A stretch of DNA of 56,832 nucleotides from a virus. The stretch covers positions 1-56,832 of the IMG/VR virus record IMGVR_UViG_3300009073_000005, one strand, 5' to 3'. The notes beneath the pieces are model-generated. The model ran no database searches and was not told the origin of the DNA. It saw only the letters and a list, made by a program, of their open reading frames with translations. The position numbers and the translations under genes are program-made. Shown one piece after another: positions 3,101 through 56,832 of this stretch. Positions within the stretch are counted from its first letter, which is position 1. Every line of letters starts with the position of its first letter.

Positions 3101-4480
3101 TATGACAGCAGAAAGAAACCGCACACCGACAACGACAGAATTTATCGCATCAACACCGAATTCTAATATCTTAAAAAATACCCTCATCGACCTGACGCCA
3201 GCGTCAGCACCCTCGCCAGTCGCACCAAATTGGTTTGCCAAAAGACTAAGTGTCCCGGCTATTTTTATCATTAGCGGGTTAGTTATTTTCCCTTCGGCGT
3301 TAAAGTTATTAAAGTTTTTAACGACCTCGGAGATCCCGACCACAACCGGCCTCAGCGCATTATTGAGTGCCGTACCTATTGTTATAACCAATGTGCCGAG
3401 GTTCGAATTTAGTATCTCCACCGCACCGTCAAAAGTTTTAAGCTTTTGTTCGTTTAACGTCTTCGCCAGGTCTTCTTTTTGTGCTCTCTTTATTGAGTCC
3501 GATAATTTGTCGATACCGGAGGCACCCTGGGAAACAAGGGCCAAAAGTTTAGGACCGGCGCGATCCCCAAACGCTTCGAATATTTTACCAGAGAATTCGT
3601 TTGCTCCAAGCTTCTCCCTGGCCTCCTCGAGCTTACCGATGAAACCAGAAAAACCCTCACTCTGTAAAGTCTCAATGTCTACACCGAGAATATTCATCGA
3701 CCTTCTCGCGTCACCAGTTGCGCCGACAAGCTGAGTCATTACCTTTCTGAGGCCCGTACCGGAGTCACTTCCCCGGATACCGGCATTAGCCAAGAGGCCG
3801 ATAGCGGTAGACGTCTCCGTCATAGATATTCCAAGACTCTCCGCAACCGGACCCGCGACTTTTATAGACTCCGCGAGCTGCAACAGGTTAGTGTTTGAGC
3901 TGGTTGTTGTGCCAAGAAGAATATTGTTTGCATCGGATAATTCATCGACGTTAAGCTTAAACGATGCCATTGCGTTGGTCACAACGTCGGCTGAGGACGC
4001 AAGGTCTAGCCCGGCACCGGAGGCGAGCTGTGCTACTGGCAGAAGCGCCCCGACGCTCTCGGACGCACTCAGGCCCGCCTGAGCCAAGAAATCAAGAGAT
4101 CCTGCCATCTCTTTTGCTGTAAATACGGTCTCCCCAGCAGCCTTAAGTGCCGCGTCAGATATCTGGGTATAAACCTCATCTATCTTTTGCCCCTCTTTCA
4201 CCATTTTACCGGCTGCCTGGGTTATGCCTAATTCAAATTCTGCGGAGGCGCTTGATAGTTTCTTTATGGCGTTAGTGGCAACGCGGAGCCCCTGAAAAGC
4301 AACGAAAGCTTTTGCGGCGTTTTGAATGTTTGCCACAGAGCCCGTAAAGCCCTTTATGCTTTTTCTTGCGTTTGCCGTGGCACCTTTTACCTTAGTAAAT
4401 CCCGCCTGTAGTTTTCTCACGCCAGACTGGAAGCTGGCCGTGTTCATACCTGCTTTGAATTCTATGTCGTTATTAGGCAT
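62..4480 (-). CDS. Tail tape measure protein (1472 aa)
   Basis: Largest ORF of the tail module, directly downstream of the G/GT chaperone pair. Long hydrophobic helical repeats (PIIEGLAGIVEALGPVMEALGG, PVTDIINTVLGPALQLIGD) are flanked by K/E/R-rich coiled-coil segments. Confidence 0.9.
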   Translation of the reverse strand: MPNNDIEFKAGMNTASFQSGVRKLQAGFTKVKGATANARKSIKGFTGSVANIQNAAKAFVAFQGLRVATNAIKKLSSASAEFELGITQAAGKMVKEGQKIDEVYTQISDAALKAAGETVFTAKEMAGSLDFLAQAGLSASESVGALLPVAQLASGAGLDLASSADVVTNAMASFKLNVDELSDANNILLGTTTSSNTNLLQLAESIKVAGPVAESLGISMTETSTAIGLLANAGIRGSDSGTGLRKVMTQLVGATGDARRSMNILGVDIETLQSEGFSGFIGKLEEAREKLGANEFSGKIFEAFGDRAGPKLLALVSQGASGIDKLSDSIKRAQKEDLAKTLNEQKLKTFDGAVEILNSNLGTLVITIGTALNNALRPVVVGISEVVKNFNNFNAEGKITNPLMIKIAGTLSLLANQFGATGEGADAGVRSMRVFFKILEFGVDAINSVVVGVRFLSAVIQDLDSSLRQGKFSTDSFDRLAAELYNTQRAYDAATEKAKEFSVVTNDVGPGVPSSISSEGAFSGASGAGGGGQGGSGPGIIGKEIDEVKDLFEEFSNEAFNNFQLSDLKGANLEIEEITQGLEASLIRAEELGKEFGKTDDEVAALKSDLEGIAKDKISIVNENEQKRIKKLREDQAKAAAEANKQVSDFAQKISSIRPEVNLTEFQSDVRSIQDDVNEITDEGRELLVDGVIDQSQYNEFVKDIEAGKELKIQAAIERQTVRDNSDRSKKISSAASALGLDKVSNEIDKATDSTTGLIDSQQALTGVTTFLATSALKVLADIIIDTVSAMQPVIDAMNILKVAISDTLTSSLAVVGDVIAPIIEGLAGIVEALGPVMEALGGAISDIISPIIELISPITDLVGSISSFLAPIIETLGVAIGGVVSIVTSILSPVLSSLAGVFDVLTAVIKPVTDIINTVLGPALQLIGDVVGDLISTVLEPFNAVLDPIVKALEPMLEVVSEIVTALMPLLELFIQFNPVMLKLKVAAEIVGAALNLLAKPVKFVADLLAGLANKLKGVGDFISKPVKKIGKAISDGAKSIGGFFKKALGGGSDDSTSAADRAKAKAKAEADARKRRSQQNRAQGIEDTLSGTGADLSDVDGSDGFDSAERKKLEEEFKKFGASLAKARQLGVDPTGKSLEELKEAISDERQARSDRLREERREAAERAQARRSRANLAASVGVDDSAKKTFDTVAKEIIGAFASGGGNGIFGSGSEGGFFSGFLESLGIAGSKITEIFGDGSIGDIDFSELFSELTGISSSLDGIDGDIKAQLSDVLRSFDAFDDEQIGSLVRRFSEQLEGATEEEKQAFLESLQLEQEQIDALKEQLKDEEAIADSTKKISETLSNIPQGFKVAQARISAIDFEDPAFDNVDAETNLDRSGLLLIDAAGALERAASAFAFNIPNDNISGSSSFNVSGANQLNGGFNIDQITVVANNPSEMRAQIQAESERRSSLVFGNPLSTRSNNNGN

Positions 4481-18258: not shown

Positions 18259-19647
18259 TCAGATAAGACAAAAATCCGGCTGGTCTTCTGAATCAAGGTG
18301 CCTGCCTATGGCCCAGCACAACGCGTCAAGACGGTCAGGGGAGTACTTAGAAGTCTCAGGAGACCATTGGGTCTGCTCTTGTTCGAGCTCGTCAAATACC
18401 CTTGTGTGATGCACGCGGCCCTGCTCGTAAAGAGCGGATACTGGCTCTGCCCTTAGTCTTTTACCGCGCTTTCCGGTGTATGCGTCATCTATTACGATAT
18501 TCGGGTTTACGCCCTTAAGGATCGTAGGACCCATCTGGCCGCCCTGGTTTTTCTCGAATACGACCTTATCGGCCTGGTATCTCTCATAGGCCAGGTTTAC
18601 TTGCTTTGCCCAGGTTATAGGTGATCCGCTTTTGCTCATATCATCAAGAACCCAGTAATGATAAATATCACCGATCTTTCTTATTCCGACCACGACAATT
18701 CCAGTCATGTTTGTGTCGATATCCCTCTTGGCCTCTTCTATCTGCGGATCGACACCAATAAATACGTGCGAAAACCCCTCCTCCGGGACCGGGAATTTTC
18801 TGCCGCCGTCTATCATATCCAGGGTCCAAAGTGCTCCGGTGACCTCTAGTAAGATCTCCGCGTGTATCTCTTGCTTGCCGATACTCGTTCCTTCGTACTT
18901 TCTCTGCATTTTGCTTAAAAACTTCTTAGATAGATTGTCCTGATTCTCATACATAGATCCACGGATAAGGTGAGTATCTTCGTCCTGTATGATGTCCAGG
19001 ATTGTCTTGTTTACACGGGGGGTGCTTGTTATGAGCACCAGTGGATCGCCGAAGTCCTCAAGGCGAACACAGAACTCAAGCATCTCCCAAACGTAACCAG
19101 AGTTTTTCCACTTACACAGCTCGTCTACCCATGCAAAATTATACTGATAACCGACAACATCGTCAGGCGCGTCCGAAGTGAAAACATAAGCAATCGAACC
19201 ATTGGGCCAGGTTATCTGCCCTTTTGCTGGCTCGTAATGAGGCTCAAACCACGGGGGAGAGTTCTTTATTATGCCAGACTTTCCCTCTATCATGACGCGT
19301 CGGCAGTCTTTGTAGTTCTTGCCCATTATGCAGATAATCGCGCCAGGATTTTTCCATGCGTACTCTATGGTGTTATTTGCGCCCATATGGGTTTTGCCAA
19401 AACCGCGACCGCAGCAGGCAAACACGACGCCCTTTCCGTTGTTCGGCATTCTTTGCTTTGGTCGCGCATTAAGTGACCAGTCGTAACGAATAACGTCTTC
19501 GAGCTTTCTTGGCTTTAATCCGTGCGACACAAGCTCTTTGTTATTCTCTCGGTTTCTCTTGGCCATTTCGTTTAGGAAGTCTGGCCACTTGCCGGTCTCG
19601 ACAAGCTGGTCTTTTAAACTCATGTCTTCAAGCGCTAGAGCCTGCAT
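18259..19647 (-). CDS. terL: Terminase large subunit
   Basis: Walker A CCGRGFGKT, Walker B FAWVDELCKW, C-terminal nuclease-like half. 462 aa, upstream of the portal. Confidence 0.85.
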   Translation of the reverse strand: MQALALEDMSLKDQLVETGKWPDFLNEMAKRNRENNKELVSHGLKPRKLEDVIRYDWSLNARPKQRMPNNGKGVVFACCGRGFGKTHMGANNTIEYAWKNPGAIICIMGKNYKDCRRVMIEGKSGIIKNSPPWFEPHYEPAKGQITWPNGSIAYVFTSDAPDDVVGYQYNFAWVDELCKWKNSGYVWEMLEFCVRLEDFGDPLVLITSTPRVNKTILDIIQDEDTHLIRGSMYENQDNLSKKFLSKMQRKYEGTSIGKQEIHAEILLEVTGALWTLDMIDGGRKFPVPEEGFSHVFIGVDPQIEEAKRDIDTNMTGIVVVGIRKIGDIYHYWVLDDMSKSGSPITWAKQVNLAYERYQADKVVFEKNQGGQMGPTILKGVNPNIVIDDAYTGKRGKRLRAEPVSALYEQGRVHHTRVFDELEQEQTQWSPETSKYSPDRLDALCWAIGRHLDSEDQPDFCLI

Positions 19648-22891: not shown

Positions 22892-23042
22892 TTTTATTTA
22901 TACCACAAGCCAGCGTATTGGATATATCTAAAAACAGATCTGTATCATAATGAATCAAAAATGCTGCCCACTTTTCCTCGGTAAACGTTTTCAGTCTTTC
23001 CAGTTTGTACCTTTTCCCCATGTATTCAAAATTTACTTTCAT
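22839..23042 (-). CDS. Hypothetical protein (67 aa)
   Basis: 4-nt overlap with the recombinase stop. Confidence 0.45.
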   Translation of the reverse strand: MKVNFEYMGKRYKLERLKTFTEEKWAAFLIHYDTDLFLDISNTLACGINKIVQCSNDARQCTRTQPL

Positions 23043-23737
23043 GTTACCCCCGATATGTTGTTTTCTTTTTTTGAATTTCTTAATATGTATCCAACACGCC
23101 TGCTGTTGAATTCCTTACCCGTTCTTGTTTTGTGACCTTCGCTGTCTAGCTCGTTTGCTATCTTTCTGTGCGTGATACCTTTTGACTCCATCTCTAGGGC
23201 CTTCTCCAGTATGTAGGTCTCCATCTTATCGATGACTATGTTTTCACCGTCCGACGTGTAGCCATAGGGAAGGCACCCATCGACTTTGCCGTTCGACCTT
23301 CTGTTCTTTTTGTATGCCCGCATCCTTTCGCTGGCCTTCTCAGACTCATAGGCGGCGAGGCACATCGCGAGAGACCTCATAAGGCGGGCCTCCGGCGTGT
23401 TGTTGTTAAGGCCGACACTCGAAGCCTCCACGAGAAAGCACCCCCTCTTCATTATCATTTTTTCGATATTCAGGGCGTCCCTCAGGTCCCTTGAGAACCG
23501 GCACATCTTGGCAACAAGAACTATATCGCCAGACTCTAAGCTATCAAGCATCTCCGCGAACGCTGGCCGTCTCGACGGGTGCTTTTTTCCAGAAACAGCC
23601 CCGTCTTCGTACACTTTGACATCCAAGATTTCTCTTTCGTCGCAGTATTTTTTACAGGTTGCGATTTGTGTCTCCAGGCCGAGCCTAGTCTCTTTTTGTT
23701 TATTTCCAGAGACCCTTGTGTATATATGCGCCCTCAT
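23039..23737 (-). CDS. Serine recombinase (232 aa; resolvase domain plus a partial recombinase domain)
   Basis: IYTRVSGNKQ (catalytic Ser), GAVSGKK..RRPAF..GDIVLVAKMCRFSRD, then GCLPYGY..RRVGYILRN as seen in large serine recombinases. Confidence 0.85.
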   Translation of the reverse strand: MRAHIYTRVSGNKQKETRLGLETQIATCKKYCDEREILDVKVYEDGAVSGKKHPSRRPAFAEMLDSLESGDIVLVAKMCRFSRDLRDALNIEKMIMKRGCFLVEASSVGLNNNTPEARLMRSLAMCLAAYESEKASERMRAYKKNRRSNGKVDGCLPYGYTSDGENIVIDKMETYILEKALEMESKGITHRKIANELDSEGHKTRTGKEFNSRRVGYILRNSKKENNISGVT

Positions 23738-28341: not shown

Positions 28342-28703
28342 TTCATTAGCTCCTTGTAAAGCGATGGCCGTATCTCTTGCCAATTCATCGCGTCGTAGTT
28401 CCCAACAGACCAGTAGCACTTGCCATCAAGCACGCCAACACAAAGGCACCCATAATAATTACCGGGTCCGACCTCGACAACGTTTCTTATGTTCTTTTCT
28501 ATGTATTCGGCACGCCTTTCTTCTTCATCAAGCTTCGCAACCCTTAGCTGCTCGGCCCTCTCGCGTCTTTCGTGCTCGGAGGCAATCTGCTCAGCCGCCT
28601 TTCCCTTTTCGGTCCAATGTCTTTCATCGTCAAAGGCCGTTACGTCTACTTTTCCATGGCTTCTGTCGTTTTCATCGACACGGGACCTGCAAAATTCTCT
28701 CAT
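28338..28703 (-). CDS. Hypothetical protein (121 aa)
   Basis: E/R-rich helix then a Cys-containing C-terminal domain. ATGA overlap with the HTH gene. Confidence 0.55.
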   Translation of the reverse strand: MREFCRSRVDENDRSHGKVDVTAFDDERHWTEKGKAAEQIASEHERRERAEQLRVAKLDEEERRAEYIEKNIRNVVEVGPGNYYGCLCVGVLDGKCYWSVGNYDAMNWQEIRPSLYKELMK

Positions 28704-28879
28704 TTTTCCACCAGTACGTGCATAATTTTAGTGTTTTCGTCTACCCAGGACTCAAGATCTGGAAACAGCTCGACCTCGCCACGGTCGCTCTGCTTCAAAT
28801 AACCCTTCCTGATCCAGTTACTGACCGTCTGACGGGTCACGTTACAACGTTCTGCAACCTCAGAAATAGTACAGATCAT
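28700..28879 (-). CDS. Small HTH DNA-binding protein (59 aa; absent from the supplied ORF track, which lists nothing shorter than 60 aa)
   Basis: My translation: MICTISEVAERCNVTRQTVSNWIRKGYLKQSDRGEVELFPDLESWVDENTKIMHVLVEK. Classic HTH (VAERCNVTRQTVSNWIRKG). The TGA overlaps the ATG of the next gene. Confidence 0.7.
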   Translation of the reverse strand: MICTISEVAERCNVTRQTVSNWIRKGYLKQSDRGEVELFPDLESWVDENTKIMHVLVEK

Positions 28880-30171: not shown

Positions 30172-30486
30172 CTAAACCACCTCAAAAGCCATCTCAAGGT
30201 TGCCCAATGTCGCTTTTTTCGCCATTTCAAAGTCATCTCCAATCAATTCGGAATAAGCATCAAGAGAAGCCTCTATTACAATCTCAGAAAAGCATAAAAG
30301 CTTACTCCTTAGCGCATTTATTCCGAACTTCTTAACAAATTCGATGTCCTTGTTTAGTTCTGGCATTCCAATGTAACCGCCAAGCTCCCAATTATCCTGT
30401 GTCATCATGTGAGTGACGGTTTTGTATCTTTCTTTGTATTCTCTAGCCGAACCTGCGATCTCTATAATAATTTTTGCGTTTGTCAT
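30172..30486 (-). CDS. Hypothetical protein (104 aa)
   Basis: First gene after Pc. ACTGGGAGG SD, starts MTNAK. Confidence 0.6.
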   Translation of the reverse strand: MTNAKIIIEIAGSAREYKERYKTVTHMMTQDNWELGGYIGMPELNKDIEFVKKFGINALRSKLLCFSEIVIEASLDAYSELIGDDFEMAKKATLGNLEMAFEVV

Positions 30487-30508
30487 TTTGACCTCCCAGT
30501 CTGATATC

Positions 30509-30547
30509 AGATTAATTCATTGATTCGATGTTGTCAAATACTTTGCA
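30509..30547 (-). promoter_or_regulatory. Early leftward promoter Pc with operator variant
   Basis: Minus strand: TTGACA (30537-30532), 17 bp, TAATCT (30514-30509). Operator TGTCAAATACTTTGCA. A/T-tract DNA upstream at 30560-30600. Confidence 0.65.
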
Positions 30548-30979
30548 ACAGTTAATCACGATTTTTTTTAAAAATTTTCAATTTCAAATTTCGAATTTGG
30601 ATTAACAAAAACAAAAGATGGCCGATATTCGCTGGCTTTACAACTGTATCAAATTTTGACAAATAAATTTTGCGTGTAGATCGACCGTTTTAAGGGCTCA
30701 AAATGGTAAACGGACTTTTGGCGCAACGAGGGCGATTCTAAGGCCCGCTGTCGGCTCAGCGTCCACGTCATAGGGGCACACGGCGCACACCCCGCAGAAT
30801 CGAAACTGCGAAGCCTGGTGCGGTATTATGTTCTCAGGTGTGACCGTTTCACTGGGCGCAATGGTTGCGGGGTCGGTGCTTGGACTACCTCGTACACGAG
30901 AACCCAATAAAAACAAGGGGTTGCGGTTGATAGGCTAAATAAAAGTGTCTCATTCACCGCAAAACCGCTGTCTTATGCG

Positions 30980-31896
30980 CGTCGCACTTTATATTAAAGA
31001 AAAAGACCAATCAATGCGGGCACATACGATGCCGAAATTCTAAAGCGCGACATTTTGCACCCCCTAAATTGCCCTATTTCGTGTTTGTCGCGTTTTAGAT
31101 TCTCTTTTGTTTCCGGGGGGTTAGGTGCCAAAAAGTGCCCAAAAAAGTTAAAACGCGACAAATTGGGGGTAACACAATATTCCGCATCGACGAATTACCG
31201 TACACTCGCGCGTGTTTAATTATTAAAATAAATATATAGTTAACTCCCTTTATTTAGCGCCACTTATCCCCATGTCTTACCCCCTGAATACAATTCTGCT
31301 TTTTTGTGTGTTTTAAAGGCTTACCCCCCAATTTGTCGCACTTTACGTTTTTGAGGGGTGTTTTTGCGTGTAAGTATCTAATATCATTGACGAATCTAAA
31401 GTGCGACACGGTGGAATGCGGGTTTGCGGCGATGCGCCCCGAATAACCCAATGATATCGGTGTATTACATAAGTGCGACATTTTGGCAGATCGTTCTATT
31501 ATTTTGTCGCGTTGTCGCGCTTTAGATTCTAAAACCGCCACCTGGGTGCCATAATCGGGGTAGATCGTTGATATAAATCGAACGGCCTATCGCGTATATT
31601 TTAATCACATACACTATATCTTGGCCCGTTCGTGTGTGTTCACCGTACACCAAATAGGCCGACCTAATCTCGGGGATTTCGGGAAAGTTTGGTCTGCGTT
31701 TTTTGTGTACGGTCTGAATATTTGATTAGCACTGTATGATAAATAACACCGGAGCGTGCGCCCTTTATTGTATATATTAACCGAATGAGTGGTGTGCGGC
31801 CAAATACTTGTCAAAGTACTTTGAATTACCCCTGTCCGATATGATACACTTCGCGTTTTCAAGTTAAAGTGCGACAAAGTGTCGCGTTTTAGATTT
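30980..31896. repeat. Array of 11 copies of a 12-17-nt motif (GAATC)TAAA[G/A][T/C]GCGACA in both orientations
   Basis: Plus-oriented copies at 31036-31052, 31149-31160, 31392-31408, 31469-31480, 31865-31876. Minus-oriented copies at 30980-30991, 31086-31102, 31334-31345, 31505-31511, 31513-31529, 31880-31896. Confidence 0.85.
31809..31825. promoter_or_regulatory. Orphan operator-like palindrome inside the ORF-free segment
   Basis: TGTCAAAGTACTTTGAA shares the core AAAGTACTTT with the early operators, but no -10 box sits at 17 bp on either side. Confidence 0.4.
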
Positions 31897-32156
31897 TGCA
31901 TCATATTGATACAGAAATAGTGTCTCACCTGTAAAGCCAGAGCAACATATATGTTGCCCCAGGTATACATTAAAGGCCCCAATGTATACCCCAATGCACG
32001 GTCATGCACGCACCGATTTGTGCCTAATGCCGTCACGTGATAGGGTTAGGTGTGCCCGCATACTAACTAGCGAGCGCGTTCCGGGTCTAAGTCATCCAGG
32101 CATTCCCGGCCTAGCATGGGGATAGGTAAAAACCTCTGGTTGTCATAGGCGTAGCT

Positions 32157-32513
32157 ATGACCATTCTGGGTGTGTGTGTAAACCCTGGCGCGTGCTGTGG
32201 CCATCCGGTGCGGGTAATCACGGAGGGATGGATACCCGTCGAGATGGCTTTACCTATTTACAGGCCGTATATGGTGTGCAAGCGTCTATATATGATAACA
32301 AGAAAATACGACCAAATAACAGAAGAATTCACCGTTAAGAGTACGCTGTCCGGGGACAAGAAATCACTACAGGTTATCGTTAGCGGCGGCGATGAAAGTT
32401 ACGAATACAACCTGATGCGTGCCACAAAGCTTAGCCGGAAAAGGGTGTACTCTGGAATAGATCACGCCATAGGAAAGTACCGAACATTGCGGTGTCGTGA
32501 TTACATTGGATAG
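32157..32513 (+). CDS. Hypothetical protein (start uncertain; possibly an internal ATG)
   Basis: Plus-strand ORF in an otherwise leftward region with a weak RBS. The C-terminal two thirds look protein-like. Confidence 0.35.
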   Translation: MTILGVCVNPGACCGHPVRVITEGWIPVEMALPIYRPYMVCKRLYMITRKYDQITEEFTVKSTLSGDKKSLQVIVSGGDESYEYNLMRATKLSRKRVYSGIDHAIGKYRTLRCRDYIG

Positions 32514-32883
32514 ACCAACACCCGCCCAGACGTCACTATTTATCGGCGGGCTAGGCATACCGGTTTCTTTCAATGCAACCTGGGACGATGAATTTCAGGG
32601 CGCTTTTTTGGGTCCTGGTGTACCTACCCATTGTATAGTCGCGCCGCATTATTACGATAGCGCCGGGCAACACTTAGCCGCATCGATGATAAACACAATT
32701 TGCAAAATTGAAGGCTGGCTTATGATTTACACAGAACACGATCACAAGAACTACGGAGTACCGCTCGATCATGTCTATGTTGATATGGTGTTTAACCGGA
32801 GCGGTATATTTAAAGAAGAATACGGCAGCGCGTCCGTTATAACCTTTAGCTTTCGGCATGAGCACGTAAAAGCCCTCGACTAA
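32497..32883 (+). CDS. Hypothetical protein (128 aa, GTG start)
   Basis: Plus-strand ORF overlapping the previous one, followed at once by a strong terminator hairpin. Confidence 0.45.
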   Translation: MITLDRPTPAQTSLFIGGLGIPVSFNATWDDEFQGAFLGPGVPTHCIVAPHYYDSAGQHLAASMINTICKIEGWLMIYTEHDHKNYGVPLDHVYVDMVFNRSGIFKEEYGSASVITFSFRHEHVKALD

Positions 32884-37444: not shown

Positions 37445-37464
37445 TTTGCCTCCCAGCTATATAA

Positions 37465-37503
37465 AGATTATCACCTATATTTATAAATGTAAAGTACTTT
37501 ACA
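37465..37503 (-). promoter_or_regulatory. Early leftward promoter Pg with perfect palindromic operator
   Basis: Minus strand: TTTACA (37493-37488), 17 bp, TAATCT (37470-37465). Operator at 37488-37503. Confidence 0.65.
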
Positions 37504-37638
37504 TATAAAAATTAAAGATTACTCATTTTGTTAACGGTCGGCGGTCCTTATGTTAAAAAATGGCGATTATTAAAATAAAGCACTTTAGGGAATTGTTCCC
37601 CCCTCCCGTATATATTAATACGGCTGTGATCTATATAT

Positions 37639-37677
37639 AGATTAGCATCCCGGTTTTCGATTGTAAAGTACTTTGAT
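37639..37677 (-). promoter_or_regulatory. Early leftward promoter Ph (tandem, upstream of Pg) with operator variant
   Basis: Minus strand: TTTACA (37667-37662), 17 bp, TAATCT (37644-37639). Operator TGTAAAGTACTTTGAT at 37662-37677. Confidence 0.6.
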
Positions 37678-37697
37678 TTGATTTATCGATTTTGTTG

Positions 37698-41323: not shown

Positions 41324-42221
41324 AAAACGCGTTCTCGTTCTGCTGCTAATCGGGGCACTTTTAAGTCTTGGAATGGCATCGACATCTGCCGTTATGGACG
41401 CAACATTTAACCCCCATTCCGGTTTAAACGTCCTTACCTCATGGGACCACTTAAACGCGACAAGGTACGACAGTTCAGATCGTGTTCGTGACGCATGGGC
41501 TCAGACCAATTACACAAGTCACCACACCGACAACATAGATCGACCGAAGACTGGAAAAACAACCCCTGTTCTTCTCGATGCTCGAAAAGCAAGAGATGGT
41601 GAACTCGAGGAGGCGTACGCCCTTATCGAAGAATACCAGCTCGAATACCAACCTGTACAGGGGGAGCGGAGTAATGGCAAAAAGTACAAGTTTAACAAAC
41701 TGTTTAATTTCGATGATATAAACCAGTGGCGAATTCACCACCCTGTCCACTACGTAAGAACGATAGACGAGAACGGGGTAGCGGGGGAAAGCACGACGGT
41801 TAAAGACCTGGCGCTCCAGCTTTGTATGACCGATGCTGGGAAATACTACGAGCCCGCCTCGTCGGATACATGTACCCCCGACGTAAAGATATCAAGGCCA
41901 GAGACCTATACCATATTCGCCGAGTACGACGACAAGGGCGGTTTCAATCTAGGTACGCACCTCTCCCAGATAAACTACAGTAAATCGGGTCACATAAAAA
42001 GCATGGGGAACGGGGACATCTATTTTGAAAAGGGGCCAAAAGAAGACCCCTCTCCGCTTATTCGGTTTTTGGCGCGAGCCGGGATAATCGACTATTACGA
42101 TGAATTCGTAGAGGAGAATTCGGAGGGTGATAAATTTTTAAGGGTAAGACACGTAGGAAGCCATGGATACGGTGATGTGATGTTTATGCCAATTCTCACA
42201 AAAGCGCAGGCTGGGCTTTAA
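41310..42221 (+). CDS. Secreted protein of unknown function (303 aa, TTG start)
   Basis: GGAGGA lies 4 nt upstream of the TTG. Signal peptide KKRVLVLLLIGALLSLGMASTSAVMDA. Confidence 0.65.
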   Translation: MIQSKKRVLVLLLIGALLSLGMASTSAVMDATFNPHSGLNVLTSWDHLNATRYDSSDRVRDAWAQTNYTSHHTDNIDRPKTGKTTPVLLDARKARDGELEEAYALIEEYQLEYQPVQGERSNGKKYKFNKLFNFDDINQWRIHHPVHYVRTIDENGVAGESTTVKDLALQLCMTDAGKYYEPASSDTCTPDVKISRPETYTIFAEYDDKGGFNLGTHLSQINYSKSGHIKSMGNGDIYFEKGPKEDPSPLIRFLARAGIIDYYDEFVEENSEGDKFLRVRHVGSHGYGDVMFMPILTKAQAGL

Positions 42222-43242: not shown

Positions 43243-43325
43243 AATGTTTTGTTCATTTGGCTTGTCGATATGGAAAAACGGTGCCATTGTCTTATTTCAA
43301 TCTTTACGGATCGGGAGGCCCAATA

Positions 43326-46223
43326 ATGAGTATTAGTGACTTGAAAGATCGAAGAGATCTTGCAAAGCAATTTCTGGAGGTAATAAAGGGGTCGGAAGAT
43401 AAGCGGATAGGGATAACATCGCTACCGGGTGCAAAGAAAAAAGACGGCACCTCTTACCCTAATTACAACGGCGTTTTTGACAGCATACCGGCAGCGATAG
43501 ATGCGATCTTCGAACACGAGAGAATGAAGTTCGACGAAAAGCCGCAGTTCTTTCCATTTGTTAACAAATTAAACCCTGACACCGTAGAGGTAACGAATGG
43601 TTTTGTCAGGGGAATGTCCATAAAGCAGAACCAGATCGATGCGATCACGGTTCTGTGCGTGGACATTGACCCACCGGACAATTGCCCGCGACCGGTTGAG
43701 CGATCTACCTTGAACGAGTGCATAGATGCTGCAAAATTTATCGACCTGAAAATGAGAGAAAAACATTACCCGTCTGCGCTCATAACATCGAGCGGAAACG
43801 GTGCGCAGATGTTTTATAAGTGCGGCGAAGTTGAATATTTACCAGAGGAAGCCGAAGAGGATCTTGGGCATGTTTTCTTAAGGTTTATGCAGTTACACAG
43901 CGCAAACCCAAGACACGGTTTCGACTTTGACGTAACCGTTGACGTTAGCGTAGGGAACGCGGTAAGGATCATGCGCCTTCCCGGCACTAGAAACTGGAAA
44001 AAAAGAAATCGCGAAGGTAAGGATATCGTTTTTAGAACAGCTGATATCGTAACCGACATGAAACACTTTAACGCGCAACCTATACACCCGGACATGGTGA
44101 GTCTCCTTCGCGAATGGGGCAATGAAAACCCCAGCCATAAAAAGAAGACATTCTTTGGCGAGCTAAAGGCTGCGCCGATAACCGAGAAAGACTACGAAGA
44201 GGCCGAGGCTCGATGCTCATATGAGACAAGGATAAAGAGAGCCATAAAGTATGTTAAATCATGGGACCCGGAAGGAGAGGGAAATCGTTCAAATACCGTA
44301 TTCTCGACATCTGGACAATTTCTTACGCGCGGACTGCTTATAAGGATCGATGACGCCGCAAAGATAATGCACGAGCATTGGAATGTTAGAAACAAAAGCC
44401 CGCTACCGTTCGGTGGTCCCGGAATACAGAGCGGGCTGTGGTATCACACCTATAGATCTGCGATGCACGGAAAGAACGTGATGATGCTCGGGTCCGAGAT
44501 AGGCGAGTTATCAACAAAAGAGATTGAAGACGAGGCAAAAAGACTGGCCGGTTGGAATGAGGAGGCTGCCAGAAAACTTTCGATTGAGGCGTTGTGCCAC
44601 GCCGATATGGAAGTTGAGAACCTAATAAAACATACCAGTGAATTGGCGGACAAGGACCTGATACGGTCAGAGTCGAGAGGCACATACTTTGAGAAGTGCG
44701 CAATGACACCGGATATGATATGGGCGCCTGGCGGCAAGTCAAACGTGCTAAATCTTTTTACAGAATTCTGTATGGGTGCAAAGGGTGATATGCCCGCTGG
44801 AAGCTTGCTGGCGTCGCTGTCGCTTTTCTCGCAGCTTTTAAGCAAGAAATACAGCACACCCATATTCGAGCGACTCAAGGGCAATCTGGACCTCTGGAAT
44901 TGCCACATTGCGCGATCTGGTACTGGTAAGTCTTTTCCAGTCAAAAAGATATACAAGGCAGTGAAGGGTGCTGGTTGCGAATATATGATCGGAGGTGAGA
45001 CGATCGTGTCCAAAAAGTCTGCGCTTAATAAGTTGGTCATGTCGCCTGGTCACGGTGTTCTTTTCCCTATCGATGAAGCGGGCGATTTTTTCAGGGGGTT
45101 GCGGGAGGGAGGCGCAGGTTATCAGAAGGCAATAACCACCTTCCTAAAGGCTACTTATTCGGTGGATGATTATTGCGACGATATGTCGAACGAAGAATTC
45201 AAAGCGCAGAAGGGAAAGAAAAAGGTATCAATAAAGGTTGATAGGCCGTGTTTAGGAATTCACGCATCAATGACACCTGGTCAATTCAAGGATCTGTTCG
45301 ATGACCGGGACAAGGAGTCAGGCATGGCTAACAGGTGGCTGTTTCTTTACGACCTCATAATGCTCGTGGAGGACGAAATAGTGACGGACCCTAACCGAAA
45401 CGGGGGCTGCTTCGAGGAGGCGCTTGTGCCTTCCAAAGTAATTGACTTTATGAAGCTCATACCTGAAAAGTCTGAGCTGCCAGAGGGGTCAAAGCTTCAA
45501 GAGTACGATAAAGAGACAGGTGCAATAAAGGAGCCCGAGGGCGAAGATATAACGCCTTACTTTAATGTGGCGGACGTCATCGTTTGCGATTTCTCTGAGC
45601 TTGCCCATAGTGTGGCCTGTAACGTTAGAATGTTTGAGAACAAGATAAGGAAAAGACTGGATATAACGAGGAGCTATGTTCGGGAAAACAGCCTCGGCAG
45701 GTATTATCAAAACATAGTCAAGATCGCTTCCATATCCGCAATATGTCAATCCAAGAATTTGAAGAAGGTCATAATATCGGAGGACGATATGCGATGGGCG
45801 GCAAATATCGTAAATAGGAGCGTCGCTACTTTCTGGTCGATAGACTCCGAGTCTTCTTCGGTTTCATCTAACGAGAGGTACTATGACGAGCTCATTTCAG
45901 AACTAGAAAAAAGGTTTTCTCTGATGTCAGAGGAAGAAAGGATTTACAAGGGAGGTCTAACAAAAAGAGACCTTGTTAGGAACTCCAGAATGTGCGCATC
46001 GCTAAAGAAGACGCGAGTCAGTCACGGTGTGACGCAGCTGGACTCCGTGATCGATATGGCCCTCGCTAACGGTGACATCGTGGAAGTTTCAAAGGGCGAT
46101 CAGATAAAAAGAATAAGGGTAAGAGGCGAAGAGGCGCCGAAGCGAATAACCGAGAGATACTTGCCAACGTACAAGGACAGAAACGACCCAATGCTGGATA
46201 TGATGATATCAAAAAGATTTTAA
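43326..46223 (+). CDS. Bifunctional primase-polymerase (AEP) / helicase (DUF3987-like P-loop)
   Basis: GGGAGG RBS upstream of the ATG at 43326. AEP motifs VLCVDID, SGNGAQMFY, RIMRLPGTRNWK. Walker A ARSGTGKS and Walker B FPIDEAGDF in the C-terminal half. Confidence 0.8.
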   Translation: MSISDLKDRRDLAKQFLEVIKGSEDKRIGITSLPGAKKKDGTSYPNYNGVFDSIPAAIDAIFEHERMKFDEKPQFFPFVNKLNPDTVEVTNGFVRGMSIKQNQIDAITVLCVDIDPPDNCPRPVERSTLNECIDAAKFIDLKMREKHYPSALITSSGNGAQMFYKCGEVEYLPEEAEEDLGHVFLRFMQLHSANPRHGFDFDVTVDVSVGNAVRIMRLPGTRNWKKRNREGKDIVFRTADIVTDMKHFNAQPIHPDMVSLLREWGNENPSHKKKTFFGELKAAPITEKDYEEAEARCSYETRIKRAIKYVKSWDPEGEGNRSNTVFSTSGQFLTRGLLIRIDDAAKIMHEHWNVRNKSPLPFGGPGIQSGLWYHTYRSAMHGKNVMMLGSEIGELSTKEIEDEAKRLAGWNEEAARKLSIEALCHADMEVENLIKHTSELADKDLIRSESRGTYFEKCAMTPDMIWAPGGKSNVLNLFTEFCMGAKGDMPAGSLLASLSLFSQLLSKKYSTPIFERLKGNLDLWNCHIARSGTGKSFPVKKIYKAVKGAGCEYMIGGETIVSKKSALNKLVMSPGHGVLFPIDEAGDFFRGLREGGAGYQKAITTFLKATYSVDDYCDDMSNEEFKAQKGKKKVSIKVDRPCLGIHASMTPGQFKDLFDDRDKESGMANRWLFLYDLIMLVEDEIVTDPNRNGGCFEEALVPSKVIDFMKLIPEKSELPEGSKLQEYDKETGAIKEPEGEDITPYFNVADVIVCDFSELAHSVACNVRMFENKIRKRLDITRSYVRENSLGRYYQNIVKIASISAICQSKNLKKVIISEDDMRWAANIVNRSVATFWSIDSESSSVSSNERYYDELISELEKRFSLMSEEERIYKGGLTKRDLVRNSRMCASLKKTRVSHGVTQLDSVIDMALANGDIVEVSKGDQIKRIRVRGEEAPKRITERYLPTYKDRNDPMLDMMISKRF

Positions 46224-47368: not shown

Positions 47369-47531
47369 TGATTGCATCAAGAAACGTATCGGACGTCATT
47401 CGTTTGATCATAGTTTTTATTGCGCTGATTGTGATGTAGTCATTGTCGATTTCGACTTAGAGGGCTACACCAATCATTTATACGAGGTTTTTAGGTCCAG
47501 AAGGATCTACTTAAACGAAACTAACAACTAA
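47349..47531 (+). CDS. Possible small Cys/His protein (60 aa, TTG start)
   Basis: GAGG lies 8 nt upstream of the TTG. DDC..H..H..CADC pattern. No in-frame ATG. Confidence 0.35.
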   Translation: MKKTQHDDCIKKRIGRHSFDHSFYCADCDVVIVDFDLEGYTNHLYEVFRSRRIYLNETNN

Positions 47532-47553
47532 CAACTAACAACTAACAACTAAG
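47521..47553 (+). repeat. Heptanucleotide tandem repeat (CTAACAA)x4 plus a partial unit
   Basis: Read directly: CTAACAA CTAACAA CTAACAA CTAACAA CTAAGG, ending 10 nt before the ATG at 47564. Confidence 0.9.
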
Positions 47554-56047: not shown

Positions 56048-56771
56048 CGCCCCCTCTGATCGTTAAAGACATTGTTACGAATCCGGTTTTCTCTGACTCG
56101 GATATTTCATCAACGGATATGTGGCAGTTCTTTGCTTCGCCATCGAATAGCCTACCTGTTACCGCAACCAGGGGGGCGGGGCCGTACCGGTTTTTGTCAT
56201 AACTATACTCTGCAAAAAAAACATCATCTAACCTATAAGGGAAGATAACAAGGTTGCAGAGATCATCAAGTACCGTGAAATTCAGGTTAACCTCTCCAGC
56301 CGAGTGAGTAGCTATTACTCCGGTCGCGGTTGTGTTGTCGTTATCAAGAAAGAACGGTTTACCGCCAAGGTTTCCAAATACTGTCCAGTCGTCTGATTGA
56401 ATATCATATGCAACATTGCCGCCGACGACGGTTGATCCGTTCGTATTGTACGGGGTCGATGCGTCAGGGTCCACAACACATGACGACATAAGGTAAGAAG
56501 ACGGCCTTATACCGGTAGATCCCTCGTTGCCGTTCGAGAAGTCTATATGATGATACTGGCCTTCACATATCTTTCTCAGTTGCTCGGCTATGTTTTCTCT
56601 CATTAATGATGTTTTAAGGTTGTAAACCTTTCTTCGGTTCCGAACACCGTCGAACATTATCCCGCCAACAGACCTGGTATAGCTTCCGATGTATTCGAAG
56701 GTCTCTGTGAGGCTTCCAATTTCCACCGGTACCACATGCCCGTTAACCTTTAAAAATCTTTCCATATACAT
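56025..56771 (-). CDS. Distal tail protein candidate (248 aa); its start overlaps the tape measure stop across the window junction
   Basis: The ATG at 56771-56769 equals positions 62-60, so TAATG overlaps the tape measure TAA (64-62). LKVNGHVVP, RRKVYNLKTSL, TGRLFDG..FVTMSLTI. Confidence 0.6.
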   Translation of the reverse strand: MYMERFLKVNGHVVPVEIGSLTETFEYIGSYTRSVGGIMFDGVRNRRKVYNLKTSLMRENIAEQLRKICEGQYHHIDFSNGNEGSTGIRPSSYLMSSCVVDPDASTPYNTNGSTVVGGNVAYDIQSDDWTVFGNLGGKPFFLDNDNTTATGVIATHSAGEVNLNFTVLDDLCNLVIFPYRLDDVFFAEYSYDKNRYGPAPLVAVTGRLFDGEAKNCHISVDEISESEKTGFVTMSLTIRGGDDVIDQG

Positions 56772-56832
56772 TAGTTACCATTATTGTTTGATCTAGTCGA
56801 TAAAGGATTACCGAAAACTAGGCTAGACCTTC
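56710..56832. repeat. Terminal direct repeat, copy 2 (identical to 1..123)
   Basis: Read directly. Confidence 0.9.

Follow-up and report, generated by a model that had tools for sequence, protein, structure and literature searches.

Eleven copies of one sequence motif around an AT-rich core in a tailed phage genome: a candidate origin-like or regulatory site array

Why does a phage with about 88 tightly packed genes keep a long stretch of non-coding DNA in which one short sequence recurs eleven times in both orientations? The question is raised by the IMG/VR virus record IMGVR_UViG_3300009073_000005, which was analyzed over its whole length of 56,832 nucleotides (nt), hereafter the window. 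Because its ends overlap (nt 1-123 are identical to 56710-56832), the assembly is circular with 56,709 base pairs (bp), and the window is the complete genome of a tailed phage. The repeats lie between positions 30980 and 31896 and are named P1 to P5 where they read on the plus strand and M1 to M5 where they read on the minus strand, with M4 divided into M4a and M4b. Most likely, they constitute a region of a familiar type that acts in cis by binding protein and is either origin-like or regulatory. The interpretation that we favor, tentatively and with a probability of roughly 0.37, is an array of double-stranded DNA binding sites laid out like a helicase-loading replication origin of the type found in staphylococcal pathogenicity islands (SaPIs).

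Eleven sites around an AT-rich core

The initial annotation had reported eleven copies, and every one of their coordinates proved correct when re-checked. Eight copies (P1, M2, P2, M3, P3, M4b, P5, and M5) contain the perfect 12-mer TAAARYGCGACA. From left to right, the array consists of M1 (30980-30991, minus strand, TAAAGTGCGACG with one mismatch), P1 (31036-31052, plus strand, AATTCTAAAGCGCGACA), M2 (31086-31102, the full 17-mer GAATCTAAAACGCGACA on the minus strand), P2 with its extension (31149-31169, plus strand, TAAAACGCGACAAATTGGGGG), M3 (31325-31345, minus strand), P3 (31392-31408, plus strand), the degenerate P4 (31469-31480, plus strand, ATAAGTGCGACA, beginning ATAA and carrying two mismatches), the M4a/M4b doublet (31505-31529, minus strand), and the P5-M5 pair (31864-31896, both strands), in which the inverted copies are joined as TAAAGTGCGACA-AAG-TGTCGCGTTTTA. 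Within the doublet, the partial 7-nt copy M4a (TGTCGCG) abuts the full 17-mer M4b, and the two are overlapping direct copies 8 bp apart. Genome-wide enrichment, which had been proposed as a check, was also observed: at no more than one mismatch, TAAARYGCGACA occurs 10 times in the window vs. 1.28 ± 1.17 times in 100 dinucleotide shuffles, an approximately eightfold excess (shuffle maximum of 6, with none reaching 10). Nine of these 10 matches fall inside 30980-31891, i.e., within 912 bp of the 56.7-kb genome. The sole near-match outside the array (41451-41462, TTAAACGCGACA followed by AGGTACGACA) lies inside an open reading frame (ORF) of 303 amino acids (aa) that heads the replication module and is consistent with chance, as about 1.3 such matches are expected.

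Alignment of the copies delimits a conserved block from positions -3 to +12 with 1.0-2.1 bits per position and a weaker TG at +16/+17, whereas the flanks hold about 0-0.4 bits, which is essentially no information. The resulting consensus, AA(tc)TAAA-RY-GCGACA-(a)n(t)TG, spans about 20 bp and is asymmetric, and its central two positions vary solely as a purine followed by a pyrimidine (GT, GC, or AC). A conserved core within unconserved flanks indicates selected sites in diverged surroundings rather than recent duplicates, and the use of a single sequence eleven times, in both orientations and with variation at two positions, points to a site recognized by a protein.

The copies had previously been described as four convergent inverted pairs. 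The geometry is correct, and the spacers of 33, 164, 104, and 3 nt were confirmed on re-measurement, but the scheme is not unique and other pairings are equally valid or better. Between any plus and any minus copy, 10-12 of 12 positions pair, and all 12 do so in five combinations (P1:M4b, P2:M2, P2:M5, P3:M3, and P5:M3). Two of them, M2/P2 and M3/P3, are divergent neighbors with exactly 51 nt between the arms in each case and a centre-to-centre distance of 63 bp, corresponding to 6.0 helical turns; centre-to-centre spacings along the array are 61, 45, 63, 185, 63, 72, 36, and 8 bp. These two pairs occupy the arms of an 84-nt inverted duplication, with M2 as the outer and P2 as the inner site of unit A on the left (31086-31169) and M3 and P3 in unit B on the right (31325-31408). 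The inverted-repeat match between the units extends over 43-nt arms that are 74% complementary, and A5/A6 tracts, which adjoin P2, and T5/T5 tracts flank the inner sites.

Between the two units lies the centre of the whole arrangement. When every possible centre between 30700 and 32000 was scanned, the strongest dyad was found at 31247.0, where complementarity over ±199 nt reaches 41.7% vs. a background of 25.2 ± 3.2% (about 5 standard deviations). The dyad coincides with an AT-rich core at 31211-31259, a candidate DNA-unwinding element delimited by A+T content, duplex stability, and dyad position, which is the only block of the array with at least 80% A+T over 40 nt. By nearest-neighbor energy, 31216-31255 is the second least stable 40-mer in the 56.8 kb (99.99th percentile). 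To the left of the core stand M1 (-), P1 (+), M2 (-), and P2 (+), and to the right M3 (-), P3 (+), P4 (+), and M4a/b (-); P5-M5 is isolated a further 340 bp to the right. The array is thus better organized than first described, and nothing about it requires a new principle.

All copies reside in a gene-free island (30487-32156; 1,670 nt) that was delimited by codon log-odds, gap ranking, and gene callers and that is the largest intergenic gap of the genome, the next largest measuring 511 and 247 nt. With a codon-usage model built on long genes of the phage itself, none of the six frames of 30487-32156 gave a coding signal (all log-odds negative), independent gene callers left the island empty, and its longest internal ORFs gave no Pfam or PHROG match, so that no hidden gene or pseudogene is detectable. 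The island probably reaches 32291 if the plus-strand ORF to its right begins at an internal ATG. The identical sequence was found in three further assemblies from ENA, Logan, and JGI (contigs L071, L072, and L073; 100% identity over the region).

Such an island could be relic or selfish DNA, consisting of nested remnants of an element resembling a miniature inverted-repeat transposable element with 5'-TGTCGC...GCGACA-3' ends, or of old duplications, that are functionless now. The divergent pairs M1/P1, M2/P2, and M3/P3 do look transposon-like, with TGT...ACA outer ends and units of 73-75 bp, and units A and B are inverted duplicates of each other. However, the unit ends lack target-site duplications and the unit interiors differ except for the A/B duplication. 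No copies occur elsewhere in the phage, and the scans of IMG/VR, the metagenome collection, and the GTDB genomes turned up neither an array nor a multi-copy family. Conservation of the core amid decayed flanks indicates selection on the sites, and phage genomes seldom retain 1.7 kb of useless DNA, all of which makes a relic quite improbable.

Putative RNA helices and the P5-M5 palindrome

Inverted copies could also act in RNA. If the region were transcribed, long helices could arise from them, as parts of a single large RNA or as a set of hairpins for processing or termination, and the initial annotation had raised this option on the basis of its convergent pairs and of G-U wobbles that seemed to favor a plus-strand transcript. 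Any adjacent inverted pair indeed folds well below shuffled controls (z of -3.2 to -6.6), but low folding energy is automatic for any inverted repeat. The choice of partners is ambiguous, given the five perfect combinations, and a single helix sequence reused 11 times would favor misfolding. The perfect pairs M2/P2 and M3/P3 differ from each other at two compensated positions; however, the probability that two of three divergent pairs share a variant by chance is about 0.3 as calculated from the variant frequencies. The wobble argument did not hold either, as the directions in the four pairs are split 4 vs. 2 (two-sided P = 0.69).

Broader searches for structured RNA gave the same picture. Among Rfam covariance models only tRNA reached its gathering score, and at E ≤ 5 just two sub-threshold, chance-level hits were obtained. 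The motif-free gap segments of 250-330 nt fold no better than shuffles on both strands (z of +0.4 to -1.5), and no promoter above chance was found in the array. An RNA function of the array is not supported and appears highly doubtful. The plausible role of RNA is limited to P5-M5, as a terminator-like hairpin on the plus strand.

P5-M5 is the only fully palindromic version of the motif (GCGACA-AAG-TGTCGC), forming a 27-bp palindrome. On the plus strand, 31864-31892 has the features of a Rho-independent terminator, namely a GC-rich stem of 13 pairs, a 3-nt loop, and a following ATTTTG, with the T-run tail TTTTAGATTTTG; its folding energy is -11.3 kcal/mol (z of -2.6). Near-identical palindromes are plain terminators located after tRNA genes in an unrelated genome (L098). 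Unlike in a simple terminator, the arms of P5-M5 are copies of a motif that recurs nine more times nearby, and it is therefore unlikely to be a terminator alone. Judging from its sequence, we consider P5-M5 a candidate dimer operator as well as a terminator-like hairpin.

Operator, origin, or another DNA site

A regulatory function would have to fit the transcription signals of the phage. Six leftward promoters were recognized on the minus strand (37663, 37489, 35110, 33613, 30533, and 24264), all of one class in which the palindrome TTGTAAAGTACTTTACA(A) is followed by 17 nt, TAATCT or TATACT, about 12 nt, CTGGGAGG, and ATG. As the palindrome contains a -35-like TTTACA or TTGACA, the phage evidently uses sigma-70-like promoters with a strong Shine-Dalgarno sequence, and the shared palindrome suggests one dimeric regulator of all early leftward units. 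One of these promoters (30493-30550, minus strand; TTGCAAAGTATTTGACA, 17 nt, TAATCT, CTGGGAGG, ATG) marks the left boundary of the island and serves the leftward gene starting at 30486, and since this gene has its own promoter the array is not its leader. A degenerate promoter palindrome at 31804-31821 (minus strand, TTCAAAGTACTTTGACA) has no recognizable -10 and falls below the promoter-matrix threshold. The motif is absent from the six real promoters, and the GCGACA system is therefore separate. Within the array region, a generic sigma-70 scan returned seven sites vs. 6.5 expected, which is not above chance, and the phage's own promoter matrix found no promoter inside the array; P4 includes a weak sigma-70-like match (GCGACA, 16 nt, TATTAT).

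Against this background, the main rival to an origin is a transcriptional operator or insulator array for a phage regulator, with P5-M5 as a high-affinity dimer operator and each of the other copies composed of a strong and a weak half-site. Bound sites would loop or coat the DNA and thereby control or block transcription, and the array would set apart two leftward transcription units (p33613 and p30533) and the small-gene pair of opposite orientation at 32292-32883. The palindrome of P5-M5 is of the classic operator type, and the TG at the start of the second half-site is kept in eight of the ten other copies. The array also lies between two phage-type promoters and adjoins convergent plus-strand genes, and the spacing of the pairs by an integral number of turns would suit looping as well. 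On the other hand, promoter-like matches do not exceed chance and the phage promoter matrix is empty inside the array. The adjacent genes, being ORFans or SprB-like, include nothing repressor-like. Moreover, the sites are lacking both in the six real promoters and in the rest of the genome, and 1.7 kb is large for an operator region. Overall, we regard an operator or insulator array as rather unlikely.

The origin-like interpretation is favored because the layout matches that of SaPI origins and because the phage encodes a fused primase-helicase. According to this model, a single sequence-specific protein, probably phage-encoded, would bind the eleven copies, and initiator molecules would fill the sites on both sides of the AT-rich core. 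The phased 63-bp pairs, together with the adjacent A-tracts, would help to bend or wrap the DNA, whereupon the core at 31216-31255 would melt and helicases could be loaded in opposite directions. The obvious candidate initiator is the fused primase-helicase (43257-46223, plus strand), which family matches assign to DUF3987 and phrog_3022, and a 59-aa helix-turn-helix (HTH) protein (28700-28879) could be an alternative site-binder. P5-M5 might serve as a dimer-type operator, as a terminator that shields the array from transcription, or as both. The copies, their enrichment, the symmetric layout, the AT-rich core, and the lack of genes are observations, and binding by a protein, the choice of that protein, and the start of replication are inferences.

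Several observations weigh against an origin at this position. No relative carrying the array was found in any collection searched. A distance of 11.3 kb separates the array from the gene of the primase-helicase, whereas most iteron origins and those of the SaPI type adjoin the gene of their initiator. Its sites are 12-20 bp long, stand 45-72 bp apart, and alternate in orientation, unlike short, close, and regularly phased direct repeats. Similarity to solved Rep proteins was not detectable in the sequence of the helicase; the primase-helicase matches DUF3987 and PHROG primase/helicase families but no chain in the PDB, with the helicase half searched to E ≤ 10, and no Rep_3, RepA, lambda-O-like, or other Rep family was found among the phage ORFs searched. 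Candidate host-factor sites are few: we found no GATC cluster (three GATC in the 1.67-kb island vs. 4.2 per kb genome-wide, i.e., a depletion) and a single DnaA-box-like sequence with one mismatch (8/9) beside the AT-rich core (TTATCCCCA at 31264). Finally, leftward and rightward genes diverge from a point at 37.5 kb, which holds the genome's least stable DNA (37476-37515) and would be the more conventional location of an origin; a fork starting at 31.2 kb would be driven head-on into 6 kb of leftward genes. Owing to the distance from the helicase gene, the length and spacing of the sites, the lack of detectable Rep similarity, the scarcity of host-factor sites, and the alternative at 37.5 kb, we hold the origin-like interpretation only tentatively.

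Other DNA transactions that employ repeated sites comprise partition centromeres, packaging regions of the pac or cosB type, and the crossover sites of serine-recombinase multiple-inversion systems. The initial annotation had proposed a DNA site array acting as an origin, a centromere-like site, or a regulator sink; the internal evidence fits a site array, but as regards a centromere, neither the ORFs searched nor the precomputed Pfam lists included a member of a ParA or ParB family. Packaging is brought to mind by the inverted pairs of sites about 50 bp apart, which recall the R sites of lambda cosB, and by the 59-aa HTH protein, which matches the N-terminal HTH of small terminase and excisionase families. 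However, 11 kb separate the terminase genes from the array, and the large terminase TerL (18259-19647, minus strand, profile match) is of the T4-like type. With respect to inversion, the alternating orientation of the sites recalls shufflons, and a serine recombinase of 232 aa is encoded at 23039-23737 (minus strand). This protein is 7 kb away, though, and matches only the N-terminal part of large serine integrases (phrog_95); it may be truncated or, alternatively, an unusually short version. Neither coding sequence nor a promoter is present between the sites, and three independent assemblies agree exactly in their arrangement, with no break at any repeat. Taken as a group, such functions seem distinctly unlikely.

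A decoy or sink that titrates a host regulator of TGTCGCG-type sites, by means of either the high-affinity sites or their hairpin transcripts, would be very improbable, and the same applies to an origin of a new architecture that lies far from its initiator and fires head-on into the early genes. TGTCGCG is read by six of the eleven copies and TGTCGCA by four of the remaining five, with CGTCGCA in M1. A 5'-TGTCGCG-3' motif at CtrA-dependent promoters has been proposed, and contested, for the alphaproteobacterial protein SciP (PMC4083442). The array contains no CtrA boxes.

Genomic setting, relatives, and comparison with known systems

The minus strand of the genome encodes the T4-type large terminase, a portal protein, and an HK97-type capsid protein. 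A rightward replication module comprises the 988-aa DUF3987 primase/helicase, a Sak4-like annealase, an exonuclease, and a RadD-like superfamily 2 helicase, and the phage also encodes one tRNA-Met. Nearly every early gene is an ORFan. Where the leftward and rightward operons diverge, the intergenic region (37445-37691) contains two 44-nt direct repeats, and a perfect tandem repeat (AACTAAC x 4.9) occupies 47519-47552 in the gap preceding gene 47564.

To the right of the island, two small genes lie on the plus strand. The first (32292-32513) encodes 73 aa with a coding score of 0.116 from an internal ATG. The annotated start that yields 118 aa is probably wrong, as the coding signal begins at this ATG, and the 73-aa form is independently on record; its neighbors lie on the opposite strand. 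The product resembles one SprB repeat, SprB repeats being part of giant cell-surface proteins, and its structure model comprises three strands and a helix at a predicted local distance difference test score (pLDDT) of 68, i.e., a beta-rich fold and not an HTH. The second gene, an ORFan of 65 aa, is located in the right part of the island (32686-32883), and neither of the two looks DNA-binding. A terminator-like hairpin with a T-run on the plus strand between them (32579-32606) supports two separate short genes rather than overlapping ORFs of 118 and 128 aa. Resemblance of the small plus-strand ORFs to a 102-aa neighbor was not significant. The 104-aa and 128-aa neighbors are ORFans, and the structure model of a 136-aa candidate was unusable (pLDDT of 36.5).

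Searches for relatives covered deposited phages and plasmids, individual genes, and the architecture of the array. The phage had no DNA match among 50,697 deposited phages, to any of which its terminase is at most 38% identical; deposited plasmids gave no DNA match, and neither did a tblastn search with the primase/helicase yield one. Searches of IMG/VR with the flanking 104-aa and 221-aa genes yielded no relatives, and 64 IMG/VR loci sharing the 102-aa gene were not syntenic and lacked the motif. The nearest relatives of this gene in a set of 5.8 billion proteins sit in unrelated phages, making it a mosaic gene and the sole conserved neighbor of the array. When IMG/VR, the metagenome collection, and 185,579 GTDB genomes were scanned for paired sites of this architecture, only lone palindromes were retrieved, which on inspection were ordinary terminators or one long palindrome between convergent genes and were rejected as relatives. 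One contig with the 51-nt inner spacing (L079) was likewise discarded, the spacing being a coincidence in an unrelated freshwater contig; its positions 3800-3925 form a perfect palindrome with arms of about 45 nt between convergent genes, containing four copies of TAAAATGCGACA.

The promoter palindrome was no better as a lineage marker, with 30 loci found and none of them having a protein in common with the window. A 16-nt palindrome, TGTAAAGTACTTTACA, occurs two to three times at spacings of 66-153 bp in the IMG/VR contigs L107 (4892-5040), L132 (439-587), L113, L115, and L136. These contigs share no protein with the phage, and the palindrome may be a widespread type of operator.

The array is real and statistically solid but probably an ordinary kind of element. 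Since repeated binding sites around an AT-rich core are already well known, the result adds a case and not a concept. If it is an origin, a lineage without cultured or sequenced relatives would gain a defined cis element along with a candidate initiator, and the array would be a case of an origin far from the gene of its initiator. If it is an operator or insulator, it would mark a regulatory node of this lineage. Either way, at about 600 bp the array offers a compact target that is easy to test.

Among phage regulatory systems, asymmetric repressor sites in many copies are known from the C1 operators of P1 and the stoperators of mycobacteriophages, which are 13-17 bp long and sometimes form inverted pairs. 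Those sites are dispersed over the genome at promoters or within transcription units, whereas all copies described here are confined to one gene-free island. Among replication systems, the sites of phage P4 occur in both orientations, another cis region (crr) lies several kb from the ori, and the P4 primase-helicase binds them. The extension of the inner sites, GACAAATTG, presumably resembles part of the RepE iteron of the F plasmid, a likeness that we do not use in the argument.

Classical iteron origins of plasmids and lambdoid phages have repeated initiator sites of 17-22 bp that adjoin an A+T-rich unwinding element (PMC4980987). An inverted-repeat "operator" iteron stands beside the asymmetric copies, as P5-M5 does in the phage, but classical iterons all point the same way, are regularly phased along the helix, and are located within the rep gene or close by, whereas the orientations in the phage alternate. 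SaPI origins contain 6-12 iterons that are divided equally between the two flanks of an AT-rich centre, and on each flank two or more of them point in opposite directions; a Rep or PriRep helicase that loads itself binds these iterons, and in SaPI5 the Rep is fused to the primase (PMC9371898). Their iterons of 5-6 nt are found immediately downstream of rep (PMC9371898). In the phage, by contrast, the conserved block measures about 16-20 bp instead of a penta- or hexanucleotide, and the nearest replication gene is 11.3 kb away, with ORFans and a SprB-like ORF as the neighbors of the array. The general plan is nevertheless alike: the array has eleven copies of one repeat, which is within the range of 6-12, an AT-rich centre is present with opposed repeats on both sides, and the phage, too, encodes a primase fused to a helicase.

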